Made by a program: the position numbers and the translations under genes
Notes under the pieces: model-generated
The model's database searches: none
The model's input: the letters and a program-made list of their open reading frames with translations, nothing else
Told to the model about the DNA's origin: nothing
In this document: positions 5,069-64,000 of the stretch, one piece after another
Numbering within the stretch: position 1 is the first letter of the stretch
How the letters are laid out: the number at the start of each line of letters is the position of its first letter
NCBI GenBank assembly: GCA_043823085.1
Contig: JBDRBE010000004.1
Span: 69,510-133,509 of the forward strand
DNA from: Candidatus Levyibacteriota bacterium
GTDB taxonomy: Bacteria > Patescibacteriota > Microgenomatia > Levybacterales > UBA12049
DNA: 64,000 nucleotides
Direction of reading: 5' to 3'

Positions 5069-6201
5069 ATAATAAAAAAAGCGGTGTAGAAAATAAAGAT
5101 ATTGAATACATCCATGAAAAAGCAAAACAGGAATTTGAAAAACTTTCAGGCAGTAAACTGCTTTTGACGGGCGCTGGTGGTTTCTTAGGATATTACTTTA
5201 TTAAGTCAATTCTTGCATGGAATAAAAATAATCCTGATAAATTAATACAGCTTATAGCCTTAAGTAATTTTAGAAACGGTATTCCGCAATGGCTTGATTC
5301 TTTAAAAGGATGGGAAGATTTTAAAATCATTCAAAAAAATATTGTAAAATACTCACTTCCTAAAAGTTCAACGTTTGATTATATTATCCATGCTGCATCA
5401 ATAGCTTCTCCAACTTTTTACCGTTTATTCCCAATTGAAACAATTAATGCAAATGTGCAAGGTTTATATAAAATATTAGACTACATGGTTTTAAGAAAAA
5501 AAACCAGGCAGCCGGTAAAGGGTTTGTTATTTTTTTCTTCAAGCGAAATATACGGAGATCCAAGCGAGGGAGATATTCCAACTCCAGAAACCTATCGCGG
5601 TACTGTTTCATGTACAGGGCCAAGAGCTTGTTATGACGAGTCAAAAAGATTTTGTGAGACGCTATGCGTGAACTATGTAAAAGTTCACAGCCTTCCTATA
5701 AAAGTTGCGCGTCCATTCAATAATTATGGACCTGGAATGAAGATTACAGATGGGAGAGTGATTGCTGATTTTGCAAAAAATATTTTGGAAAATAAAGATA
5801 TTGTTATGTTTTCCGATGGTAGTCCATCAAGAACTTTTTGTTACGTTGCCGATGCAATTGTCGGTTACTTAAAAATTCTCGTACAGGGAAAAAATGGCCA
5901 AGCATATAATATTGGAGTTAAAAAACCGGAAGTATCAATGAAAACTTTAGCCGAAAAAATGGTAAAAATAGGAAGAGAAGATTTCAAATTTACGAAAAAA
6001 ATAATTCTTCAAAAAAGTAAGGACAAGAATTATCTGACAGATAATCCCAATCGCCGTTGTCCGGTAATTGATAAGGCAAGAAAAGAAATAGGATATGACC
6101 CGGAAATTTCTCTTGATGATGGCTTGCAAAGAGTTATGCATTGGTATCATGAGAGATATTTTAAAAATCAAAAATCAAAAATCAAAAATCAAAAGCAATG
6201 A
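5062..6201 (+). CDS. NAD-dependent SDR epimerase/dehydratase, UDP-glucuronate decarboxylase-like (UXS/ArnA-C-like)
   Basis: LLTGAGGFLGYY Rossmann motif and CYDESKRF (YxxxK catalytic region resembling UXS CYDEGKR). Start chosen at the second Met; the ORF track starts at 5032. The 3' end carries (AAAAATC)4 and overlaps the ugd start. Confidence 0.6.
   Translation: MVDNKKSGVENKDIEYIHEKAKQEFEKLSGSKLLLTGAGGFLGYYFIKSILAWNKNNPDKLIQLIALSNFRNGIPQWLDSLKGWEDFKIIQKNIVKYSLPKSSTFDYIIHAASIASPTFYRLFPIETINANVQGLYKILDYMVLRKKTRQPVKGLLFFSSSEIYGDPSEGDIPTPETYRGTVSCTGPRACYDESKRFCETLCVNYVKVHSLPIKVARPFNNYGPGMKITDGRVIADFAKNILENKDIVMFSDGSPSRTFCYVADAIVGYLKILVQGKNGQAYNIGVKKPEVSMKTLAEKMVKIGREDFKFTKKIILQKSKDKNYLTDNPNRRCPVIDKARKEIGYDPEISLDDGLQRVMHWYHERYFKNQKSKIKNQKQ
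6163..6190 (+). repeat. Tandem heptamer (AAAAATC)x4 at the 3' end of the SDR gene and the SDR/ugd junction
   Basis: Four perfect 7-nt copies read directly from the sequence. They encode the KNQKSKIKNQK tail. Confidence 0.9.
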
Positions 6202-17100: not shown

Positions 17101-17795
17101 TTATTTTTGCCGAGGGAGATACTATCGGTGGTTTTTTAAGAATTGTTCCATTCTCCCCAAGAGATACAAGCGAAATAAAAATAAGAAATCTGAAAGTGCA
17201 AAAAATTGAGTATCCAGAACTTTTATTAAGAAAAATTGTTATAGAGCAAAATAAAAGCGAACCACCTCAAGTTACTTTTACAAAAATAAATCCTACAAAA
17301 TATGTTTTAAATATAAAAGGAGTAAAGAATCCCTATTCTCTTATTTTCTTGGAGCAGTATAGTGCAAATTGGAAATTATTCGATACAAGTAGCAATACTA
17401 ATTCATTTGCAGGGGAGATATCGAGATTCTTCGGGCAAATAGGAAAATTATTGATTGGGCTTTTTATAAAAGATAATTCTAAAAATACTATAGTGGCAAA
17501 CTACTTTAATGATAAAGTAAAAGAAGGGGAGTCTAAGAATATATTTATAGAACCAAGCACTTTTGAAACTTGGGGGAAAAATGCTGTTTTTGAACGTGAG
17601 CATATTTCTGTCAATGGATATGCAAATGCATGGTATATAAAACCTAATGGAATGGGTGGAAAGACAGATTATACATTAATTCTCGAGCTTAAAACGCAAA
17701 AACTGTTTTACCCGGCGCTTTTACTGTCACTGGTGACTTTCTTCTCACTCGTGCTTTATTTAATTAAAAAGCTCTTATGGCAAAAAAAACGATAG
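14139..17795 (+). CDS. Polytopic membrane protein, YfhO-like (putative GT-C glycosyltransferase) with a very large extracytoplasmic domain, paralog B
   Basis: 1218 aa. PFFWLKPGEMNLGGDSGRLYFYDP N-terminal motif, C-terminal VNGYANAWYIKP, and a final TM anchor. Confidence 0.6.
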   Translation: MKKYRFAIILAVILFFIPFFWLKPGEMNLGGDSGRLYFYDPGSYLNLRVLYNYLGSGNGTEIIYYTHFPYVALLFFIKLILQSPTMLISFFNGLTLSVAFFFVYLFVKELLSTNENSIKSGFVEMSSILAGLFYILSQISIYSGWERPITTFNQMFLNPFMAFLLLKFMLTQKKEYLISALLATFVFSVNFSLVGAPPFFAFYPITVLFLFLYAKLVRKVSFKWKSFVAGIILFLFLHAFHLVNTIDGVFSLSSSYNLTVFALQGEASRNGLDYFISVASNIKASRIWMSLAQFQIQAYFAIFIIFPAVLVVSFFLNKGKTLLFTGLFFLIVLFFASAITQTGFFFYRQLFLIPGFNMFRNFHGQWSYVFFFFYALLFGQAIAIVANKSSKRIALAIFTISSMVIIGFGTPLFTGSISIPMDAEKTVRTSFKMDPAYEQVLQYFKSNLVDGKVLMFPLTDHGYQIFKGKEGGVYKGLPTISILDDKSDFGGYETLGPFKDIFLTSIKNNDYETFKKMLSAMNIKWIFYNSDPYIYGEPFLSTLYGFVSNYSPKDQQEYKSFIEKLPINKLIDFGEKYHIYSVNDDIYFPHIYTSTDIVFTTNQINLMFDPEFQKDMYRTLLPVESSTSKKDSMIIYGLQKSFLTQIKDNRHFHTHNPFIGRALDDLFYPLVIVREKFDLARLRNKPDQYLDFSLFLLSKRIQELNRFGINMKAGQGSWQEPSPWDLKRWFSYNSWNASLVRYENAVNAIIDWIDNSDIPEEKKMLNKLKVNEQFSKHELHLISDVYDFNKEDNEKKYLLSVVNRMFERLYKKVNVTVSDPSLCMYKLPTFTNREGEYTVYFRGKNIPDIDQSQIFTRLGDQTSKTQFANIRVDERSEAQVILKIPVSNIVKEEKWSSSGVPIEGLNGITSLSFSNGLGGSIDGLTLQIPNWIPDYAYLISFDYNTNGDDFIFSFADKKSSEKAFKKVNQRLLFEKRLNAKNFKTHQSIIFAEGDTIGGFLRIVPFSPRDTSEIKIRNLKVQKIEYPELLLRKIVIEQNKSEPPQVTFTKINPTKYVLNIKGVKNPYSLIFLEQYSANWKLFDTSSNTNSFAGEISRFFGQIGKLLIGLFIKDNSKNTIVANYFNDKVKEGESKNIFIEPSTFETWGKNAVFEREHISVNGYANAWYIKPNGMGGKTDYTLILELKTQKLFYPALLLSLVTFFSLVLYLIKKLLWQKKR

Positions 17796-19888
17796 TAACA
17801 TTATTATTTCTGATTCCTATACTTTTTATTTTTAAAAATTGGTTTATTTTTCCTTTTCTTTCCGGGCATGATTGGCCTTATTTTTTTAAAGAGACACTTT
17901 CTGATTATTCGTTTTTTCCTCCTGCATGGTCTCCAACGTTGGGGATTGGACTTGGCGGAGAAATGACAAATTATGGCTTGGGTACATTTATTTATGCGTT
18001 AGTTTCATTATTTGTAAATTCAATTGGCTTGCCATGGGAACTGGTATATAAGATTTTTATTTTTGGGTTGTTTCTTATTCTCTCCGTTTTTTCAAGCGTT
18101 TATTTATTACGTACGGTTTTAAAGAATCCAGGTAAACTGCAATTGTTATTGTCCGTACTTATATTTAGTGCAAATACCTATATTCTTATGGTTTTAGATG
18201 GGGGGCAGATGGGAGTAGCCCTCGCTTATAGCATATCTCCGCTCGTTCTAGGAACCTTTATAAATCTTGTAAATAACTTTGTTTCCATTTCGCCTAATTT
18301 CAAATTTCATTCATTCGGCAAGCTCAGGACAAGAATTTCAAATTTCAAATTTCCAATATTGGCTAGTTTGGTTTTAACCATACAAATTATGTTTGACTTT
18401 CGGATAGCAGTTCTTACAACTGTAATAGGTCTATTTTATGCAATGTATTATTATTTTTTTATTGAACGGTTTGAGCTTGGATTATTTGTTAAACATTGTG
18501 TATTAACTGGATTTATTATTCTGGGTTTCAATATATATTGGGTTTTTCCAATTGTTGCCTTGCGTTCACTTCCGTCCCAGGAGTTGTTAAGTAGTTTGAG
18601 TTCGGTTTCTGGTTTTCAATTTTTTTCATTTGCGACATTTTCGCAAACCTTATCGCTTCTACAACCTAATTGGCCGGAAAATATTTTTGGGAAGGTATAT
18701 TTTATGAGAAGTGAGTTTATTATATTGCCTGTTTTGGCGTACTTAGGGTTATTGTTTATTAAAACCAAAGCGCTGAAAAATGCAAAACAATACGCAGAAC
18801 ACCGCAGAATTTTATTTTTTGCACTCCTGGGATTGGTGGGTGCTTTTTTGGCAAAAGGGGCAAATCCACCATTTGGAGAGATAAATACCTGGTTATTTAC
18901 GAATGTGCCATTTCTCTATTTCTTTAGAGATTCAACGAAGTTTTACTTATTAACCATGTTATCTTACAGTGTTTTGATACCATTTACAGTTTATTCTATT
19001 AAAACATGGTTAAGTTCAAAACTCCCCACTTCGCCAAGGCTTTGTGGGGCAAGCAAAACTCAAAATTATTTATTTTATCTTGTGCCAATGATTGCAATTC
19101 TTTATTTATTATTCCTGATTCGTCCTATTTTTTTAGACAAACTTAATGGGACATTTAAAAGGCATGAAATTTCAAAAGAATACCTTGAGTTAAAAGATTT
19201 TTTAAACAGCCAAAAAGATTTTTCGAGAACATTATGGATACCAAGGCAAGATCGTTACAACTTTTACTCCTGCCTTCATCCGGCAGTGTCCGGAGAGGAT
19301 CTTTTTTCGGCAACTAATTCGGCTGAGATAATAAGGAAATTAAAAATGGATCAAACTCGTGAATTGCTTTCTAATTTTTCGATAAAATATATAATTATTC
19401 CATTTGATTCATTTGGAGAGATTTTTGTAAAAGACAGAAAATATAATGAAAAAGAATATTCTTCCACGGTGAATCTTCTTAATTCAATTAATTGGCTTAA
19501 AAAAATAGAAGATTTTGGTAATATCATTGTCTATGAAACTCCAGACCACAAGGATCATTTTTGGTTAAACGGACAAGGTAAACTTTCATATACAGCTATA
19601 GGCCCGTCAGAATATGAAGTAAAGGTGTCAGCAGAAAAAGCTTCGAAAGTAATTTTTACCGAAGCCTATAATCCTTATTGGATAACAGACACCGGTAGCG
19701 ATAAATTAACAAGTAAAAAAACAGAATACAATGCAAATAGTTTTTTATTGGAAAAGGGAGGAGTTTACGAATTAAAAGTATACTTTTCAAAACAGAAATA
19801 TTATAACTTTGGAAAATTGATTACGTTGCTTTTTATCGTAGCTTTTTCGTTTACTGCGATATTTCTTAGAAAGAAAACTAATTTATGA
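17777..19888 (+). CDS. Polytopic membrane protein, YfhO-like, paralog C (shares the C-terminal domain, divergent N-terminus)
   Basis: 703 aa. C-terminal FTEAYNPYWI matches SEAFHSNWKIY and LEQYSANWKLF of paralogs A and B. Ends with a TM anchor. Confidence 0.55.
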   Translation: MAKKTIVTLLFLIPILFIFKNWFIFPFLSGHDWPYFFKETLSDYSFFPPAWSPTLGIGLGGEMTNYGLGTFIYALVSLFVNSIGLPWELVYKIFIFGLFLILSVFSSVYLLRTVLKNPGKLQLLLSVLIFSANTYILMVLDGGQMGVALAYSISPLVLGTFINLVNNFVSISPNFKFHSFGKLRTRISNFKFPILASLVLTIQIMFDFRIAVLTTVIGLFYAMYYYFFIERFELGLFVKHCVLTGFIILGFNIYWVFPIVALRSLPSQELLSSLSSVSGFQFFSFATFSQTLSLLQPNWPENIFGKVYFMRSEFIILPVLAYLGLLFIKTKALKNAKQYAEHRRILFFALLGLVGAFLAKGANPPFGEINTWLFTNVPFLYFFRDSTKFYLLTMLSYSVLIPFTVYSIKTWLSSKLPTSPRLCGASKTQNYLFYLVPMIAILYLLFLIRPIFLDKLNGTFKRHEISKEYLELKDFLNSQKDFSRTLWIPRQDRYNFYSCLHPAVSGEDLFSATNSAEIIRKLKMDQTRELLSNFSIKYIIIPFDSFGEIFVKDRKYNEKEYSSTVNLLNSINWLKKIEDFGNIIVYETPDHKDHFWLNGQGKLSYTAIGPSEYEVKVSAEKASKVIFTEAYNPYWITDTGSDKLTSKKTEYNANSFLLEKGGVYELKVYFSKQKYYNFGKLITLLFIVAFSFTAIFLRKKTNL
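18334..18354 (+). repeat. Tandem heptamer (AATTTCA)x2 plus one imperfect copy inside paralog C. A second pair lies at 18296-18309.
   Basis: Read directly from the sequence. Encodes SNFKFPI. Confidence 0.7.
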
Positions 19889-40193: not shown

Positions 40194-41312
40194 ATGTTAA
40201 TAGGCATTGATGGCAATGAGGCAAATGTAGAGAAAAGGGTTGGAATTGGGGAATACGCTTACGAATTGCTGCGGCAATTCAGTAAATATCAAATATCAAA
40301 TATCAAATATCAAATATATTTAAAAACGAAACCCATAGATGATTTGCCAAAAGAGAGAGAGGGGTGGAGATATAGGATTGTTAAGCCTTCAAAATTATGG
40401 ACGCAGATTGGTTTGCCATTTGATCTTTTTTGGCACAGGCCTCGCCCTGATATTTTTTTCTCACCAACTCACTATGCGCCAAGATTTTCGTGTGTCCCAA
40501 CAATAGTTTCGATAATGGATTTATCTTTTATTCATTTTCCCGAGCTTTTTAAAAAATCCGACCTTTACCAGCTTAAAAACTGGACAGCGTATTCGGTAAA
40601 AAAAGCAAGCAAGATATTTGCCATTAGTCAGGCTAGTAAAGATGATATAATTAAGACGTATGGAATACCCAAGGAGAAGATTGTGGTGACGCACCTGGGA
40701 ATCAAAAATCAAAAATCAAAAATCGAAAATATGGATGAGATTAAGAAAAAATACGGAATTGAAGGAAATTATATTCTTTTTGTTGGGACGCTTCAGCCAA
40801 GAAAGAATATAGAAAGGCTTATTGAAGCATTCTCAAAAATCAAAAATCAAGAATCAGGAATTAAGAATTTAGAACTCGTTATTATCGGTAAGAAGGGCTG
40901 GCTTTACGAAGATATTTTAAGTGCTCCAAAAAAATTTGGCATTGAGGACAAAGTGAAATTTCTTGATTTTGTTTCCGATAACGATTTACCATCATTTTAT
41001 CAGAACGCAGTTTGCTTTGTTTTGCCAAGCCTTTATGAAGGGTTTGGTCTTCCGGTTCTTGAGGCGATGCAAAATAACTGTCCTGTTATAATAAGTAATG
41101 TCTCCTCTCTTCCGGAGGCAGGAGGAGATGCTGCTCTTTATGTTAATCCAGAGGACGTCAGCGATATAGCAGAGAAGATGAGACTTTTAATCAATGATGA
41201 AAACTTGAGAAAGGAATTAATCAAAAAAGGAAAAAAGCAAATTGGTAAGTTTAGTTGGGAAAAAACCGCCAGAGAAACACTAAAAGTATTGGAGGAAGTT
41301 GCAAAAAAATAA
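40194..41312 (+). CDS. Glycosyltransferase family 4 (GT-B)
   Basis: MLIGIDGNEANVEKRVGIGEY N-terminus and E(x7)E-type region (YEGFGLPVLEAMQ). Carries (AAATATC)4 and (ATCAAAA)3-4 in-frame. Confidence 0.75.
   Translation: MLIGIDGNEANVEKRVGIGEYAYELLRQFSKYQISNIKYQIYLKTKPIDDLPKEREGWRYRIVKPSKLWTQIGLPFDLFWHRPRPDIFFSPTHYAPRFSCVPTIVSIMDLSFIHFPELFKKSDLYQLKNWTAYSVKKASKIFAISQASKDDIIKTYGIPKEKIVVTHLGIKNQKSKIENMDEIKKKYGIEGNYILFVGTLQPRKNIERLIEAFSKIKNQESGIKNLELVIIGKKGWLYEDILSAPKKFGIEDKVKFLDFVSDNDLPSFYQNAVCFVLPSLYEGFGLPVLEAMQNNCPVIISNVSSLPEAGGDAALYVNPEDVSDIAEKMRLLINDENLRKELIKKGKKQIGKFSWEKTARETLKVLEEVAKK
40284..40311 (+). repeat. Tandem heptamer (AAATATC)x4 perfect, plus a partial copy
   Basis: Read directly. 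Encodes KYQISNIKYQIY. Confidence 0.9.
40701..40728 (+). repeat. Tandem heptamer (ATCAAAA)x3 plus ATCGAAA. A further (AAAAATC)x2 plus AAGAATC lies at 40835-40855.
   Basis: Read directly. Encodes IKNQKSKIEN. Confidence 0.85.
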
Positions 41313-41908: not shown

Positions 41909-42790
41909 ATGGTTAAACTTTCCATTATTATTCTTTCGTATAACACTAAGGATTTGATCCTCAAATGTATAGATTCAATAGCTAGTCAATATAAAGAACA
42001 GCTAGATAAAGGAGAGCTTGAAATTATTGTTGTTGACAATGCCTCATCTGATGCTTCGGCATCTCAAATCTCAAATCTCAAATCTCAAATCTCAAATCTA
42101 GAATTAATTGAGAATGAAGAGAATGTTGGATTTTCAAAGGGAAATAATCGTGGGGCAAAAGCGGCATCTGGAAAATATCTTCTTTTTCTAAATTCCGATA
42201 CAGAGGTTTTAGATAAAAACTTATTGGGAATGGTTGGATTTTTGGAAAAAAATGAAAAACTTGGAATCTTAGGTGCAAAGCTTGTTAACCAGAATGGCAA
42301 AGACCAAAAGTCGACCGGAAAATTCTATACTGTGTTTAATACACTCTTAATGCTTTTTGGCGGAGAAAAGCTCGGGTTATTACGCGCAAGTCCCTCAAGT
42401 TTTAAAAATGTTGATTGGGTAAGCGGGGCGGCATTAATGATAAGACGTGATTTGCTCGAAAAATTAAACGGTTTTGATGAGAAAATTTTTATGTATATGG
42501 AAGACATGGAATTATGTTATCGGATAAAAGAGAATGGTTTTCTTGTTGGATTTTACCCCAAAGCAAAAATTTTACATAAAGAAAGAGGAAGTTCAAATAG
42601 AGAGTTTGCAATTGTTAATATTTATCAAAGCCTTTTATATTTTTCTAAAAAACACAGAAATCGCTTTGACTATTTAATGATTAAAAAAATACTTGCATTA
42701 AAAGCGATAATCTCGATTTTTTTTGGTATACTGATTAATAGCAGATATCTAAAAGATACCTATAAAAAAGCCTTAAAATTCTGCATATGA
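41909..42790 (+). CDS. Family 2 glycosyltransferase (GT-A)
   Basis: LSIIILSYNTKDLILKCIDS...VVDNASSDAS and LFLNSDTEV. Carries (ATCTCAA)4. Confidence 0.7.
   Translation: MVKLSIIILSYNTKDLILKCIDSIASQYKEQLDKGELEIIVVDNASSDASASQISNLKSQISNLELIENEENVGFSKGNNRGAKAASGKYLLFLNSDTEVLDKNLLGMVGFLEKNEKLGILGAKLVNQNGKDQKSTGKFYTVFNTLLMLFGGEKLGLLRASPSSFKNVDWVSGAALMIRRDLLEKLNGFDEKIFMYMEDMELCYRIKENGFLVGFYPKAKILHKERGSSNREFAIVNIYQSLLYFSKKHRNRFDYLMIKKILALKAIISIFFGILINSRYLKDTYKKALKFCI
42061..42088 (+). repeat. Tandem heptamer (ATCTCAA)x4 perfect
   Basis: Read directly. Encodes SQISNLKSQISNLE. Confidence 0.9.
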
Positions 42791-46011: not shown

Positions 46012-47465
46012 GAATGAAAAAAATAAAATTCTTCATATTGATTATAATTTTACTCGGTGCATTCGTTACGCGTTTGTACAGATTTGATGGTCCGATTGCA
46101 GATTGGCATTCTTGGCGCCAGAGCGACACAAGCGCTGTTTCAAGAAATTTTGTAAAATCAGGTTTTGATTTTTTTCACCCCCGTTTTGATGATTTATCAA
46201 ATGTGCCGTCGGGAATTGATAATCCTGATGGTTATCGTTTTGTCGAAGTTCCAATATATAATTTTTTCCAAGCAGGATTATTTAAGACATTTGGTATTTT
46301 TTCACTTGTCCAGTGGGGAAGACTTGTGACGATTTTCTCTTCACTTTTAACAATTATTTTTATTTATCTTATTGTTAAAAAATATCGTGGAGAACAGGCC
46401 GGTCTCTTGTCGGCTTTTTTCTTTGCTTTTTTGCCATTTAATATTTATTTCGGAAGAACAATTTTACCTGATTCTTTAATGGTGATGGCAATACTTGGCG
46501 GAATTTATTTTTTTGATAAATGGCTCGAAGAAATCTCAAATCTTAAATCTCAAATCTTTTTTATTCTCTCGGTAATTTTCACTGCATCTGCGTTTTTACT
46601 AAAACCATACGCTTTATTTTTTACACTTCCGATGATTTATCTGGTTTGGAAAAATTTTGGAATTAAAACAATTTTAAAATGGCAATTATGGATTTTTTTA
46701 ATTTTATCAATTGTTCCTTTGGTTTTTTGGCGGGCATGGATGATGCAATATCCGCAAGGTATTCCTCAAAGCACATGGCTTTTTAACGGCGGAGATATTC
46801 GTTTTAAAGGCGCCTTTTTTCAATGGATTTTTGGAGATAGAATAGGAAGACTAATTCTTGGATATTGGGGATTGCCATTATTAATACTAGGAATAATTGC
46901 CAAAGCAAAAAATAAAATTGCAAAAAACGGATTAATTTTCTTTCTTTCTTTTATTGCCTCATCTCTCTTATATATTTTTGTTATTGCCAGAGGCAATGTT
47001 CAGCATGACTATTATCAAATTTTAATCATGCCGACAGTTGCTATTTTTTTGGGTCTTGGCGGCGAATTTTTATTAACAGCGCCGCGCGAGTATTTCCATA
47101 AATCTATTTGCTATTTGCTATTTGTTATTTGCTCGATTTTTATGTTTTCTTTTAGCTGGTTTGTTGTTCGAGACTATTTTAATATTAATAACCCCTCAAT
47201 AGTTATTGCAGGAAAGGCAGTTGACGAGTTAACAGAAAAAAATGCAAAAATTATTGCGCCTTATGACGGAGACACGTCATTTCTTTATCAGACCAACAGA
47301 GCCGGTTGGGCAAGTTTTGAAAAGTCACTTCCCGAAATGGTAGAATTAGGTGCGGATTATCTGGTTTTAGTTAATCCAGCTCCAAACGATTATAATATTG
47401 GCAAAACTTACAAAATCGTTTCGGCAAAAAAAGAATATATTTTATTTAATCTTCACAATTTATGA
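46008..47465 (+). CDS. GT-C glycosyltransferase of the ArnT/PMT family (COG1807-like)
   Basis: TRLYRFDGPIADWHSWRQSDT first-loop signature and about 12 TM helices. Contains imperfect (AAATCTY)4 and (CTATTTG)3-4. Confidence 0.65.
   Translation: MRMKKIKFFILIIILLGAFVTRLYRFDGPIADWHSWRQSDTSAVSRNFVKSGFDFFHPRFDDLSNVPSGIDNPDGYRFVEVPIYNFFQAGLFKTFGIFSLVQWGRLVTIFSSLLTIIFIYLIVKKYRGEQAGLLSAFFFAFLPFNIYFGRTILPDSLMVMAILGGIYFFDKWLEEISNLKSQIFFILSVIFTASAFLLKPYALFFTLPMIYLVWKNFGIKTILKWQLWIFLILSIVPLVFWRAWMMQYPQGIPQSTWLFNGGDIRFKGAFFQWIFGDRIGRLILGYWGLPLLILGIIAKAKNKIAKNGLIFFLSFIASSLLYIFVIARGNVQHDYYQILIMPTVAIFLGLGGEFLLTAPREYFHKSICYLLFVICSIFMFSFSWFVVRDYFNINNPSIVIAGKAVDELTEKNAKIIAPYDGDTSFLYQTNRAGWASFEKSLPEMVELGADYLVLVNPAPNDYNIGKTYKIVSAKKEYILFNLHNL
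46531..46558 (+). repeat. Tandem heptamer (AAATCTC/AAATCTT)x4
   Basis: Read directly. Encodes EISNLKSQIF. Confidence 0.8.
47104..47131 (+). repeat. Tandem heptamer (CTATTTG)x3 plus TTATTTG
   Basis: Read directly. Encodes SICYLLFVIC within a TM region. Confidence 0.85.
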
Positions 47466-49605: not shown

Positions 49606-50781
49606 ATGAGAATTGGAATTGACTGCCGTCTTTGGAATGAGTCGGGAGTGGGCCGCTATATCAGAAATCTTATTAAAAACTTACTTATTCAGGACAGTAA
49701 AAATAGTTATGTGTTGTTTGTCAATAGTTTAGATAGTGAAAATATCAAATATCAAATATCAAATATCAAATATGCAAATAAAAATTTAAAAATAATAACG
49801 ACCGACATAAGATGGCATTCTTTCAAAGAGCAATTAATTTTTCCGTCGATTTTAAATAAAGAGAATCTGGATTTGGTTCATTTTCCTTATTTTTCAGTTC
49901 CGATTTTTTATAATAAACCCTTTGTCGTAACAATTCACGATTTAATCATTAACCATTTTTCAACCGGTCTCGCCTCAACTCTATCAGCTCCTTTATATCA
50001 ATTAAAACTTCTTGGTTATAAATTTGTAATTTCACAGGCCGTAAAAAAAGCGAAAAAAGTTATTACTGTTTCAAATACTACAAAAGATGAAATTATCGAT
50101 CACTTTGGGGTCGATGATAAGAAGGTTATTGTGACGTACGAAGGCGTCGATAAGCAAAAATCAAAAATCAAAAATCAAAAATCAAAGATAGATAAACCAT
50201 ATTTTCTGTATGTTGGAAATGCATATCCGCATAAGAACCTCGAAAGATTACTTGAAGCATTTTGTTTATTTTGTCATCCTGAACTTGTTTCAGGATCTCA
50301 ATTGAACCGAGATTCTGACCTTCGTCAAAATGACACGAAATTAATTTTCGTTGGGAAGAATGATTATTTCTACGAAAGGCTAAAAAAGAGGGTTAATGAA
50401 ATGGGATTAAAGGATTCAGTTATTTTTTATGGGGAGGTAAGCGATGAAGAGTTAGTTTACCTTTACAAAAATGCAAAAGCTTTAGTTTTACCCTCTTTAA
50501 TGGAAGGGTTTGGTTTGCCGGCCCTTGAGGCAATGAGTTTGGGATGTTTAGTTTTGGCATCGGATATTCCTAGCTTTCGAGAAATTTGCCAGGACGCGGC
50601 AATTTATTTTAATCCTAACAATGTTAATGATCTGGCAAAAAAACTGAAAGAAATTTGCTTTAATGATTTAAATCATTTCAGCGATTTTATAAAGAAAGGA
50701 CGTGAAAGGGCAAGTTCATTTTCCTGGGGGAAAATGACCAAAAAAACTCTAGAAGTTTATGAAAGTTGCGGTAGTTTATGA
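49606..50781 (+). CDS. Glycosyltransferase family 4 (GT-B)
   Basis: MRIGIDCRLWNESGVGRYIRNL and MEGFGLPALEAMS. Carries (AAATATC)4-5 and (AAAAATC)4 at the same relative positions as the 40194 paralog. Confidence 0.75.
   Translation: MRIGIDCRLWNESGVGRYIRNLIKNLLIQDSKNSYVLFVNSLDSENIKYQISNIKYANKNLKIITTDIRWHSFKEQLIFPSILNKENLDLVHFPYFSVPIFYNKPFVVTIHDLIINHFSTGLASTLSAPLYQLKLLGYKFVISQAVKKAKKVITVSNTTKDEIIDHFGVDDKKVIVTYEGVDKQKSKIKNQKSKIDKPYFLYVGNAYPHKNLERLLEAFCLFCHPELVSGSQLNRDSDLRQNDTKLIFVGKNDYFYERLKKRVNEMGLKDSVIFYGEVSDEELVYLYKNAKALVLPSLMEGFGLPALEAMSLGCLVLASDIPSFREICQDAAIYFNPNNVNDLAKKLKEICFNDLNHFSDFIKKGRERASSFSWGKMTKKTLEVYESCGSL
49740..49774 (+). repeat. Tandem heptamer (AAATATC)x4 perfect, plus AAATATG
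   Basis: Read directly. Encodes NIKYQISNIKYAN. Confidence 0.9.
50156..50183 (+). repeat. Tandem heptamer (AAAAATC)x4 perfect
   Basis: Read directly. Encodes DKQKSKIKNQKSKID. Confidence 0.9.
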
Positions 50782-51943
50782 CAGAGTTAATAAGTGGGGA
50801 GGGGCCGAGAGGGTGCTTTTGGCACTTCATGAGTTATTTCCGGAAGCGCCGCTTTATACTTCTGTTTATAATTCAAAGACCGCACCTTGGGCAAAAGTTT
50901 TTCCAAAAGTAATTTTTTCATTTCTTCAAAAATTTCCATTTGCTACGCGTCATGAACTGTATGTCATGTTAATGCCTTTGGCTTTTGAAAAATTTTCCGC
51001 CAAAGGCGGATTCGATGAATTTGACTTGGTAATTTCGGTGACAAGTGAGGCGGCAAAAGGAATTATCACAAAAGAAGGAACTTTTCATCTTTGTTATTGT
51101 TTGACTCCGACTCGCTATCTCTGGAGCGGATATGAGGAATATTTTAAGAATTCATTGTTAAGATTTTTAGCAAAACCCGCAGTTTTTTATTTGCGAAGAT
51201 GGGATAAAATCGCAGCAAAAAGGCCGGATGCATATGTTGCGATTTCGAAAGAAGTGCAAAAAAGAATTAAAAAATATTATAAAAGGGAATCCACAGTAAT
51301 TTATCCTCCGTTAGCATTGCTTGGCGCTGAGGTCGTCCTTGCGGGTCCTGCCGCTCGTCAGCCCCACGCGTTTCCCACTGCGCTAACAAGCGCGGGGCCC
51401 CCGCGTGGTGCCCCCCGACTCGCGTCACCCGCAATGGACTCCCCGCGCCATAGCTATTTTCTTATTGTTTCAAGGCTAGTTCCGTACAAAAGGATTGATA
51501 TCGCAGTTGAGGCTTTTAACGAACTTGGTTTGCCGCTTAAAATTATTGGAATAGGATCTCAAGAAGCTAAATTAAAAAGAATGGCAAAAAGGAATATAGA
51601 ATTTTTAGGCAACTTGACGGATATAGAGCTCGTAAGCTATTATAAAAATTGTCGTGCTCTAATTTTTCCGGGGATTGAAGATTTTGGGCTGACGATAATT
51701 GAAGCGCAGAGTTTTGGAAAACCGGTCATTGCTTTTGCAAGTGGCGGAGCACGAGAAATAATAGTTGAGGGAAAAACCGGAGAATTTTTCTTCCCTCAAA
51801 CAAAAGCAGCGCTTGTTAAGAAACTAAAAGGGTTTCGCGATGATAAATACAAGGGTGAGGACTGTCTGAATCAGGCAAATAAATTTAATAAAAAAATTTT
51901 CAAAGAAAGAATATTGAAATTTATTAAGAGTAAGATAAAATAA
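50759..51943 (+). CDS. Glycosyltransferase family 4 (GT-B) carrying an in-frame GC-rich palindromic insertion
   Basis: MKVAVVYDRVNKWGGAERVL and ..YFLIVSRLVPYKRIDIAVEAF..GIEDFGLTIIEAQSFGKPVI. A roughly 45-aa Ala/Pro/Arg-rich segment replaces the usual short interdomain linker. Confidence 0.7.
   Translation: MKVAVVYDRVNKWGGAERVLLALHELFPEAPLYTSVYNSKTAPWAKVFPKVIFSFLQKFPFATRHELYVMLMPLAFEKFSAKGGFDEFDLVISVTSEAAKGIITKEGTFHLCYCLTPTRYLWSGYEEYFKNSLLRFLAKPAVFYLRRWDKIAAKRPDAYVAISKEVQKRIKKYYKRESTVIYPPLALLGAEVVLAGPAARQPHAFPTALTSAGPPRGAPRLASPAMDSPRHSYFLIVSRLVPYKRIDIAVEAFNELGLPLKIIGIGSQEAKLKRMAKRNIEFLGNLTDIELVSYYKNCRALIFPGIEDFGLTIIEAQSFGKPVIAFASGGAREIIVEGKTGEFFFPQTKAALVKKLKGFRDDKYKGEDCLNQANKFNKKIFKERILKFIKSKIK
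51321..51450 (+). repeat. GC-rich palindromic element (about 130 nt) inserted in-frame inside the GT4 gene
   Basis: Sharp local GC jump in an AT-rich gene. Nested inverted repeats ccacgcg/cgcgtgg, gcgcTAACAAgcgc and gcggggCccccgc. Confidence 0.6.
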
Positions 51944-60170: not shown

Positions 60171-60218
60171 AATATGACCCATTCGACAAACTCAGGGTCA
60201 TAGTGAATGAACTGAACT

Positions 60219-62699: not shown

Positions 62700-63166
62700 T
62701 TTTAATGATAAGCAGTTTTTTTTAGAGCTTGCAGTTCAGTTGGAAGCGAAGCGTTCTGGTAATTAACATCTTCTTGAAGACTTAAAAAGGCAAATTTTCA
62801 TTTAGGTGCGTTTTAAGAAATTAGCTTTGGAAGTAGGGGATGACTTATAAATTCCCGCATTTTTGAGACACAGGAATTAAACTGCTTTATTCTGGATTAT
62901 CAAATCAATTTCCCCTAGGATCGTCCCCACAGCTCCACAGCTTCAAGGGTATTTGAAGAACTGCGTTATTCCCTTGTTTCGTTGTTTCATGGCCCCAGTG
63001 TCTCCAGTGTCTCTAGTGGCCCTAGTCGCTCCAAGATCCCAAAGGCCCAAAGGCCCCAGGTTCCAAGGCCAGGCTCCTTCGGATTTAATCCTCAGGATCT
63101 ATGACTTTCGTGTGTAGATATGCTTAGAACTGTCCGTACAAAAACGGATGGTGGTTTTTGGGGTAT

Positions 63167-63222: not shown

Positions 63223-64000
63223 ATGTGGCAAGATATTAAAAATATATATCATCTTTTTAATGCTGTTTTGGCAAATGGTTTATATGGGTTTCCGTCCAGG
63301 AAATTGACCGTAATTGGGGTTACAGGGACAGACGGAAAGACCACAACTGTTAATTTAATTTATCATATTCTTCAAAAAGCAGGACGCCATGCTTCGATGA
63401 TTTCTTCAATTGGCGCAATTATTAATGGAAAAGCATCAGACATTGGTTTTCACGTAACTACGCCGTCTCCCTGGAGTCTGCAAAAATTTATTAAGAAAGC
63501 CAAAGGTTTTTTGGTTCTTGAAGTTACTTCGCATGCGCTTGATCAACACAGAGTTTGGGGGATAAAGTTTGATGTTGGAGTTTTGACAAATGTTACGCAT
63601 GAGCACCTAGATTACCACAAAACATATGAAAACTACGTCAGAACTAAATCTAGGCTGTTTGGGATGGCAAAAAAAGCAGTTATTAATAGAGATGATAAGT
63701 CGTTCAAAGCTCCCGCCTTCGCCCCTTCGACTCCGCTCAGGGCTTCGGCGGGCAAGCAAAATTCAAAGCTAATAACTTATGGCATGAGTAAGAGTGCGGA
63801 TTTAAACCCTCAAAATTTCCCTTTTGAGACAAAATTGCTTGGAGAGTTCAACCGGTATAATATTTTGGCTGCAGTTGGGGCGTGTAAAGCCTTAGGTTTA
63901 AGCGATAAAGAGATAAGAGAGGGAATTGAAGGTTTTGAAGCGCCAAAAGGAAGAGGAGAAATAGTTTATGAAAATAGTTTTTATGTGATGATAGATTTTG
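63223..64000 (+). CDS. murE: Mur ligase (UDP-N-acetylmuramoyl-tripeptide synthetase MurE-like), 3' partial, with an internal GC-rich insert
   Basis: VIGVTGTDGKTTT P-loop and LTNVTHEHLDYH. Open to the window end. Absent from the ORF track because it has no stop. Confidence 0.75.
   Translation, partial: MWQDIKNIYHLFNAVLANGLYGFPSRKLTVIGVTGTDGKTTTVNLIYHILQKAGRHASMISSIGAIINGKASDIGFHVTTPSPWSLQKFIKKAKGFLVLEVTSHALDQHRVWGIKFDVGVLTNVTHEHLDYHKTYENYVRTKSRLFGMAKKAVINRDDKSFKAPAFAPSTPLRASAGKQNSKLITYGMSKSADLNPQNFPFETKLLGEFNRYNILAAVGACKALGLSDKEIREGIEGFEAPKGRGEIVYENSFYVMIDF
63722..63771 (+). repeat. GC-rich palindromic 50-nt insert inside murE, flanked by the 9-nt direct repeat TTCAAAGCT
   Basis: cccgcc...ggcggg terminal inverted repeats. 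Direct repeats at 63713-63721 and 63772-63780. Encodes the Ala/Pro-rich APAFAPSTPLRASAGKQ. Confidence 0.5.

Follow-up and report, generated by a model that had tools for sequence, protein, structure and literature searches.

A short GC-rich palindromic repeat, probably inserted and apparently read through in frame, in the murE gene of a Levybacteria genome

The best-known case of palindromic repeats that invade genes in frame is that of Rickettsia, whose Rickettsia palindromic elements (RPEs) measure 100-150 bp and are confined to that genus. Yeast mitochondria carry G+C clusters: GC-rich palindromic mini-elements in an AT-rich genome, optionally present in frame in the var1 gene. Here we describe a GC-rich palindromic stretch inside murE, the gene for UDP-MurNAc-tripeptide synthetase, at the end of a 64-kb stretch of DNA (the window, ~33% GC). 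The window comes from a metagenome-assembled genome (MAG) of Levybacteria, which belong to the Candidate Phyla Radiation (CPR). The murE stretch is very probably an inserted copy of a short dispersed repeat, lodged without target duplication in a loop encoded by heptamer repeats and apparently read through by the ribosome.

RPEs have been described as "selfish DNA in protein-coding genes" (Ogata et al. 2000) and are discussed in passages of PMC1779305 and PMC10969869. Repetitive extragenic palindromic (REP) sequences and REP doublets forming hairpins (REPINs) have a literature of their own (PMC3116915, PMC3184786). REPs are extragenic, start with a GTAG head, are served by a RAYT transposase (REP-associated tyrosine transposase), and are specific to a species or genus (see PMC3116915). 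[quoted passage not shown] Hairpin elements akin to the yeast clusters have been described from other mitochondria (PMC2800124, PMC6649704). Heptanucleotide repeats are known as the cyanobacterial STRR (short tandemly repeated repetitive) sequences and from their over-representation in bacteria (Mrazek 2007), both as related in passages of PMC4679880 and PMC4692102.

murE is the last gene of the window. Over its whole length the fragment matches, at 100% identity, the NCBI protein P0001 (398 aa; Candidatus Levyibacteriota MAG, 431-kb contig), which is named MurE and has the domains Mur_ligase_M and Mur_ligase_C, and its matches to MurE structures in the PDB reach E values down to 2e-69. A first-pass annotation of the window had placed a GC-rich inverted-repeat stretch in this gene, and it is indeed there, at slightly corrected coordinates (63712-63757). 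Within it, the segment 63712-63756 (45 nt) has a GC content of 73%, against 37% for the rest of the murE fragment and 33% for the window, and two arms, CCCGCCTTCGCCC (63712-24) and GGGCTTCGGCGGG (63740-52), pair at 10 of 13 positions; the element boundaries are uncertain by ~2 nt. The murE frame stays open across the insert, with no stop: ..VINRDDKSFK-APAFAPSTPLRASAGK-QNSKLITYG...

The peptide encoded by the insert is in none of the 120 best MurE homologs that were aligned, all of them at most 68% identical to the window MurE. At this position the homologs range from no loop (e.g. ..SYGVIS-NKFITYG) to ~30 extra residues, SKFKIQNSKL and NFKFLISKL being the usual loop forms. The loop DNA is made of tandem heptamers: (AATTCAA)4 in the ortholog L001, and (ATTTCTA/ATTTCAA)4 in L180. 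Moreover, GC-rich inserts occupy the equivalent spot in several lineages (P0017, P0109, P0084, P0074, P0002, and others), and the DNA of five such inserts consists of GC hairpins within heptamer arrays. AlphaFold, run with an alignment of 69 sequences, models the MurE fold confidently, with a mean predicted local distance difference test (pLDDT) score of 86 and a predicted template-modelling score (pTM) of 0.80. The insert (residues 164-178) lies between helix 159-162 and strand 182-186, and pLDDT falls below 50 only at residues 169-180, all but the last two of which are inside the insert. The insert is predicted to form a floppy, unstructured loop, perhaps at the protein surface.

Levybacterial MurE proteins measure ~380-450 aa, and their alignment to solved MurE structures begins only at about residue 86. 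From these alignments, the usual N-terminal domain would seem to be absent.

Empty and filled sites can be compared directly among relatives that are ~80% identical to one another: P0055 is empty, P0017 and P0109 are filled. The empty site of L180 reads TCTAATTT^CAAATTTCTA (AATTT^CAAATTT within (ATTTCTA)n). At the caret, L002 carries a 42-nt insert, CCCGCC...GGCGGGCAGG, and L181 a 19-nt insert, CCCCTCCTCGGTGGGCAGG. Neither of these filled sites shows a target duplication when compared with L180, and the 12-nt "repeat" flanking the L002 insert is already present in L180 as array. The search for an empty site among murE orthologs, which the first-pass annotation had proposed, thus yields an empty/filled pair in relatives; for the source lineage itself the empty site has to be reconstructed.

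The insert is flanked by identical 9-mers, TTCAAAGCT, at 63703-63711 and 63762-63770. As the first-pass annotation had noted, they are spaced 59 nt apart; they occur nowhere else in the window. It had taken them for a target-site duplication and, 59 not being a multiple of three, had supposed either that the repeat was partly coincidental or that a compensating indel had followed. The probability of a shared 9-mer between 25-nt flanks is ~0.002 when estimated from shuffles and 0.005 when estimated from 25-mers at equal spacing throughout the window, which excludes coincidence as the source of the repeat. Removal of 63712-63756 leaves the in-frame SFKAQNSKLITYG (TCG TTC AAA GCT CAA AAT TCA AAG CTA), which encodes SFKAQNSKL in agreement with the ..QNSKLITYG of orthologs. 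It also leaves a tandem array, TTCAAAG CTCAAAA TTCAAAG CTAATAA, with matches at 17/26 positions for lag 7 and 14/19 for lag 14, other lags giving ~30%. The empty-site allele reconstructed in this way is TTCAAAGCT-CAAAATTCAAAGCT, with the array already present and the 9-mers spaced 14. The observed spacing is then 45 + 14, which solves the frame problem without an extra event: 45 nt are 15 codons, and no compensating indel is called for. Judged by sequence, the flanking 9-mers are two units of an older tandem array, and there is no target-site duplication. The duplication claim is contradicted by the restored array, by the L180, L002, and L181 sites, and by a distant copy (L182, below) that shares the GC part only. 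Removal of the GC part likewise restores a heptamer array at window positions 18310-18333, (AATTTCA)5; at L004, (AAAATCA)5; at L018, (RRACACG)3; and, in part, at L003.

A near-identical copy exists in a distant bacterium. When the element's left 32 nt served as query in a metagenome scan, one contig was returned, L182, whose copy matches window positions 63710-63757 at 46 of 48 nt; the flanks are unrelated and the site is non-homologous. L182 is ~60% GC, and its acyltransferase is nearest to named Lentisphaerae and Verrucomicrobiota proteins (PVC-like, for Planctomycetes-Verrucomicrobia-Chlamydiae). Because the outer stem is not conserved across the wider family yet is identical here, the L182 and murE copies share descent, which in turn means that the element passed between widely differing organisms or reached both from one vector. 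Since L182 shares the GC element only, the 9-mer lies outside the mobile unit.

The surroundings of the L182 copy (985-1436) are unusual in their own right. The copy sits within a ~290-nt block packed with GC hairpins and bounded by inverted ends of ~40 nt (CATACGCGTCAACCTAAG..CCCCTACGG / CCGTAGGGG..CTTAGGTTGACGCGTATG). In the relative L185, the orthologous intergenic region is only 79 nt.

The murE element also contains the core of a widely dispersed hairpin family. A core 18-mer, TTCGACTYCGCTCAGGGC, was scanned against species-representative genomes (596 Gb) and phage contigs, and was found at at least 120 genome loci and in 54 phage-contig stretches; the murE core, CCCTTCGACTCCGCTCAGGGC, matches the motif at >170 loci across many phyla and phage contigs. 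Genome matches listed include Acidobacteriota, Chloroflexota, Sphingomonas and Sphingobium isolates, Flavobacteria, and Microcoleus, as well as Verrucomicrobiota, Saccharibacteria, Curtissbacteria, and other Patescibacteria. Some 35-70 chance matches to an 18-mer are expected in 596 Gb by our own estimate, so the locus count alone is weak proof. Bases outside the searched 18-mer are conserved too (CCC at 85-96%, AGGC at 58-72%), and 0.9 Mb of fetched sequence holds 151 copies at ≤4 mismatches, against 0 in shuffles. At 25 fetched loci there are at least two copies within 8 kb. Sequence beyond the ~26-nt core is not conserved across the family.

Copies found by the 12-nt loop alone have diverse stems: CCCT/AGGG, GGCT/AGCC, TGCT/AGCA, TCCT/AGGA, TTTC/GAAA, CGGT/ACCG, and others. 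In a set of 43 unbiased instances, pairing cells make up 82.8% of the total, and shuffling lowers the share to 56.7% (0/500 shuffles equal the observed value), a control that overstates independence because some of the instances are related copies within the same genera. All five stem pairs vary on both sides, and slid controls pair at ≤47%. The family is thus an invariant 12-nt loop, TCGACTYCGCTC, on a variable, covarying stem of 4-5 bp, often bracketed by further variable stems. Together, the multi-copy family core, the near-identical copy at a non-homologous site in L182, and the absence of the insert peptide from MurE homologs bear out an earlier suggestion, that of a miniature dispersed element inserted in an essential gene.

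Inverted repeats of at least 8 nt flank 14% of matches versus 2.3% of controls. Direct repeats of at least 7 nt flank 16.7% versus 10.5%, a difference too weak for them to be kept as a family trait. A crude count places ~86 copies in gene-end and 56 in gene-start contexts; inside ORFs, a crude ORF caller gives roughly 45 sense and 23 antisense copies. The preference for gene 3' ends is mild. Rfam at gathering score gave no match on the window, nor on the motif in 18 motif-bearing loci; at E ≤10 it gave none on 63600-63860, and only unrelated weak matches near the canonical copy of L108. The one match from the viral scan (L183), obtained with the left half of the element as query, was dismissed as a chance match in a GC-rich ORF. 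No relevant paper was found in the searchable literature for the motif, its reverse complement, or its peptides. An origin of the motif in the tRNA T-loop, transfer-messenger RNA, or 16S rRNA was considered and set aside, since the resemblances extend to only 6-7 nt. The wider family, with its conserved loop, covarying stem, and cross-phylum spread, appears to be undescribed, and appears a more interesting lead than the murE copy itself.

The window contains four matches to the pattern TTCGRN{3,8}CTCAGG, all on the + strand, where 0.18 are expected and 0/100 shuffles reach four. A 42-mer of the element has no second copy in the window at ≤3 mismatches and no blastn-short relatives there. The search for further copies that had been recommended at the outset therefore came up empty for the 42-mer itself, and turned up three more divergent family members (Table 1). 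In-frame sense copies are found in other CPR genes: an ATP-dependent DNA ligase (L018), ComM/YifB (L010), and the 3' end of another murE (L005). The copies are read as PSTPLRA in the window murE, PSTSLRA in the Saccharibacteria ComM, LRLRSGQ in the Curtissbacteria DNA ligase, and LRLRSG-stop at the other murE end. The core motif is stop-free in all three sense frames, two of which are used among the CPR copies checked.

Table 1. Coordinates of murE, the inserted element, its parts and flanks, and the other family copies in the window
Position	Strand	Feature	Basis
63223..64000, past window end	+	murE (UDP-MurNAc-tripeptide synthetase), 5' 259 codons	translation, homology
63712..63756	+	GC-rich palindromic insert of 45 nt, CCCGCC...GGCGGGCAAG, 15 codons PAFAPSTPLRASAGK	GC contrast, homolog absence, L182 match
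63712..63717	+	outer stem 5' arm CCCGCC, partner 63747-63752	arm pairing, fold; identical outer arms in L002 insert
63723..63742	+	family core: inner stem CCCT (63723-26) / AGGG (63739-42), 12-nt loop TCGACTCCGCTC (63727-38)	match to cross-phylum motif CCCTTCGACTYCGCTCAGGGC
63747..63752	+	outer stem 3' arm GGCGGG	arm pairing, fold
63703..63711	+	left 9-mer TTCAAAGCT, left part of older 7/14-nt tandem array	repeat and array analysis
63757..63775	+	right part of array, CAAAA TTCAAAG CTAATAA, holding right 9-mer (63762-63770)	lag matches after insert removal
18310..18333	+	in-frame 24-nt copy TTCATTCGGCAAGCTCAGGACAAG, peptide HSFGKLRTR, inside (AATTTCA)5, ORF 17777-19888, AT-eroded	pattern match
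60173..60202	+	intergenic copy between rsmH and ftsL-like gene, clean hairpin, stem UAUGACCC/GGGUCAUA around AUUCGACAAACUCA	pattern match, fold
63074..63100	+	degenerate AT-eroded intergenic copy ..CTCCTTCGGATTTAATCCTCAGGATC.. just upstream of murE	pattern match; no significant fold

These observations suggest how the insert may have come about. A unit of ~45 nt, with an outer stem CCCGCC/GGCGGG around the family hairpin (CCCT/AGGG, loop TCGACTCCGCTC), would have entered a slippage-prone heptamer array without duplicating its target. The ribosome would then translate the element as 15 extra residues, leaving murE apparently intact. Because the length is a multiple of three, no stop lies in frame, and AlphaFold leaves the position unstructured, read-through is the simplest reading; the element would accordingly be translated, and neutral or selfish. 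In CPR genomes, which have little intergenic space, the surviving copies may be those that fell into loops and linkers able to tolerate them. With its GC content of 73% and its close match to L182, the murE copy looks like a recent arrival, and the two eroded copies in the window are probably older, having decayed under AT pressure.

Two routes of entry can be envisaged. As a best guess, the element was copied into the repeat array while the DNA there was single-stranded. Template switching or gene conversion could have done this, with another copy or foreign DNA that had been taken up as donor; so could a hairpin-recognising HUH-type enzyme acting in trans. Both would fit the lack of duplication, the insert lengths of 18-48 nt with common ends (CCC...GGGCARG), and the slippage-prone arrays. 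No candidate mobilising enzyme lies beside the copies inspected for it (L111, L031). The segments between the paired copies at these two loci were considered as possible carriers of a mobilising gene and rejected: they encode rnpA, yidD, yidC, and metabolic genes.

A broader proposal, possible but doubtful, is that the hairpin marks the footprint of an undescribed pan-bacterial micro-element that crosses phyla and on which a conserved enzyme, one that binds hairpins, acts in trans. In CPR genomes, densely packed with genes as they are, such an element would prefer intragenic heptamer arrays and remodel the loops of essential proteins. Its range would tentatively take in Levybacteria, PVC bacteria, Acidobacteriota, Chloroflexota, Sphingomonas, cyanobacteria, and phages.

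Other origins of the murE stretch have to be weighed. The identical 9-mers, given their low chance probability, and the short terminal inverted repeats invite comparison with a classical MITE: a ~50-nt element, moved by cut-and-paste, that duplicated the 9-bp target TTCAAAGCT and was followed by an indel that restored the frame. The murE element does resemble MITEs in being a small non-autonomous repeat able to add a peptide segment. MITEs, however, end in clear inverted repeats, duplicate their target site, and have a parent insertion sequence. The terminal repeats here, 6-nt arms (CCCGCC/GGCGGG), may be hairpin stem arms rather than transposase-binding repeats; the duplication test is negative in the L180/L002/L181 comparison; the L182 copy has the GC part only; and no parent element is known. 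Moreover, excision of one repeat plus spacer (59 nt) gives SFKANNLWHE*, so that an unseen second event would be needed, whereas the 45-nt excision needs none and recreates both the orthologous QNSKLITYG and the 14-nt periodic array. We consider a classical MITE unlikely. Local growth is more unlikely still: a GC-rich loop extended in place by slippage or palindrome extension, and kept by selection, with no import. It would explain the internal half-site repeats (CTTCG three times; GGGC-TTCG then GGGC-AAGC), the half-site tandem duplications, of which L004 and a phage contig have similar ones, and the location of the loop at a slippage hotspot. But a 46/48 match that includes the non-conserved outer stem, in an unrelated bacterium of 60% GC, cannot arise independently; the core equals the motif of >170 loci; and slippage of AT-rich heptamers is not expected to give 73% GC.

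The near-identical sequence in a GC-rich organism could instead betray an assembly or binning chimera, with 45 nt from a co-occurring GC-rich organism spliced into a Levybacteria contig. This is highly improbable: murE continues in the same frame on both sides of an insert that is a multiple of three without a stop, assemblies made independently (ENA, Logan, and NCBI) have analogous GC inserts at the murE loop, and the window has three other family copies. Just as improbable is a recoding element, meaning either a hairpin bypassed by the ribosome, as in T4 gene 60 and the mitochondrial byps, or a selected regulatory hairpin at the mRNA level. A 45-50 nt GC-rich hairpin that interrupts an AT-rich gene between two matching sequences, and whose structure of -23 kcal/mol is unusual for the genome, has the look of one, and the in-frame CPR copies encountered are all sense (7/7). 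Unlike the T4 gene 60 and byp elements, however, the murE insert has no stop or frame break, which makes bypass unnecessary, and a hop from the GCT take-off to the second GCT would put translation out of frame, so that the conserved ITYG is lost. Use of two of the three open sense frames in CPR copies fits passive read-through, and the sense bias is partly expected because one antisense frame carries TGA.

Several points weigh against the account of an inserted, dispersed repeat. The nearest database MurE is only 68% identical, and no close relative of the source genome is in the databases; with the best relative at that distance, the empty site in the source lineage is inferred rather than observed. 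The hairpin of the murE copy, at -23 kcal/mol as RNA, stands only modestly above shuffles (z = -2.2, with 3 of 200 shuffles as stable), and its DNA fold is weaker (z = -1.3). Heptamer-array flanks are a small minority over all family matches (1.9% versus 0.1% of controls). No transposase was seen beside the multi-copy loci inspected, although no systematic search was made. A general link between motif and heptamer arrays, with 2 strong cases in 120, was given up and is kept for low-GC CPR cases only.

Among described systems, the murE element would seem, by this comparison, to most resemble RPEs and REP sequences. Like RPEs, it is a palindromic repeat found in frame in housekeeping genes of a small AT-rich genome, with intergenic copies as well, and it appears to add its extra peptide at a fold-compatible position: the insert has no stop and overlaps the sole segment of very low pLDDT in the model. 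Unlike them, the murE-type unit measures 24-48 nt (45 nt in murE), has a 12-nt conserved loop and a core found across phyla and phages, and resides in a Levybacteria host; the separation from RPEs is by size and host description. Like REPs, it is a short, GC-rich, imperfect palindrome present in multiple copies, mostly after gene ends, with variable stems whose structure is kept; copies may be nested or clustered, as in L182, and are dispersed, with four in the 64-kb window and 25 fetched loci that hold more than one. Unlike REPs, it has a loop sequence that is constant across phyla, and copies lie inside ORFs (murE, 18310) as well as between genes. No GTAG is found at the 5' end of the murE element, and no RAYT was seen in a source genome known from the 64-kb window only.

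The element also recalls the yeast mitochondrial G+C clusters, insofar as it seems to lie in frame in a gene, beside AT-rich repeats, with presence/absence polymorphism; those clusters are organellar, and their sequences are presumably unrelated. Its target loop is a heptamer array, which links it to the heptanucleotide repeats. Published arrays are mainly intergenic, in contrast to those here, which lie within ORFs and serve as landing sites for a GC element.

Heptamer arrays abound elsewhere in the window. Seven perfect tandem arrays of at least three copies, all of period 7, lie at 6163-6194, 40284-40317, 40700-40724, 42061-42099, 47104-47124, 49740-49773, and 50155-50186. Their units include AAAAATC, AAATATC, ATCTCAA, and CTATTTG, among others; simulation predicts none, and no other period between 5 and 12 is represented. 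All seven occur in long + strand ORFs, among them a Pfam-confirmed glycosyltransferase (49606-50781), and translate to peptides that repeat every 7 residues, KSKIKNQKSKI for example. Since one unit more or fewer would shift the frame, the arrays could serve as phase-variation switches.

Other GC-rich segments of the window are of different kinds. A 158-nt island of 67% GC at 51304-51461 is in frame within a GT4 glycosyltransferase (ORF 50759-51943), in the linker between Glyco_transf_4 (aa 13-184) and Glycos_transf_1 (aa 233-374). It forms a long hairpin (-72.7 kcal/mol, z = -6.0), lacks the murE core motif, and is presumably the first of the GC-rich hairpin inserts that the first-pass annotation had reported. 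At ~50266-50330, within the glycosyltransferase ORF 49606-50781, the peptide HPELVSGSQLNRDSDLRQND derives from a small hairpin (CATCCTGAA..TTCAGGATC), which has the look of a further short repeat that is read in frame. Upstream of murE, the intergenic segment 62988-63060 contains two GC-rich tandem repeats, (CCAGTGTCT) in ~2.7 copies and (CCCAAAGG) in ~2.4 copies. They adjoin the degenerate family copy at 63074-63100 and have no significant fold (z = 0.2).

Family copies at other loci show features of their own. At L005 4286-4308, a Levybacteria murE (P0002) ends in a canonical copy, CCCTTCGACTTCGCTCAGGGT, from which its last six codons (ALRLRSG) and, together with the next AA, its stop codon are made. 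The Curtissbacteria ATP-dependent DNA ligase (L018 1187-3094) has its copy, TLRLRSGQ, at about aa 104; a second odd segment of this ligase, ..VIARNSKNDEAILEDRSPRGVYTEFVERARGD.., resembles a different translated GC-rich repeat. The GC-rich 30.8-kb phage contig IMGVR_UViG_3300020198_000066 (L158, L166, L169) holds at least eight family copies. In several of these the halves are tandemly repeated, (CCCTTCGACTCC)n on the left and (GCTCAGGGCAAGCC)n on the right, as if grown by slippage of half-sites. In a Flavobacterium isolate (L074 25-45), a copy lies ~110 nt upstream of a 5S rRNA gene, probably in the 23S-5S spacer or the 3' end of the 23S gene.

If the insert is what it seems, in-frame colonisation by palindromic elements would extend to the Candidate Phyla Radiation, and would involve an element class of only 24-48 nt whose core is nearly letter-identical in distant bacteria and phages. 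Such elements would provide a concrete source for the odd Ala/Pro/Arg/Gly-rich peptides of CPR proteins, and would mark intragenic heptamer arrays as hotspots of loop growth. The conserved loop and covarying stem would offer a compact, testable motif by which to trace whatever enzyme or process is responsible for its spread. In genome annotation, inserts of this kind should not be taken for frameshifts, contamination, or target-site duplications.

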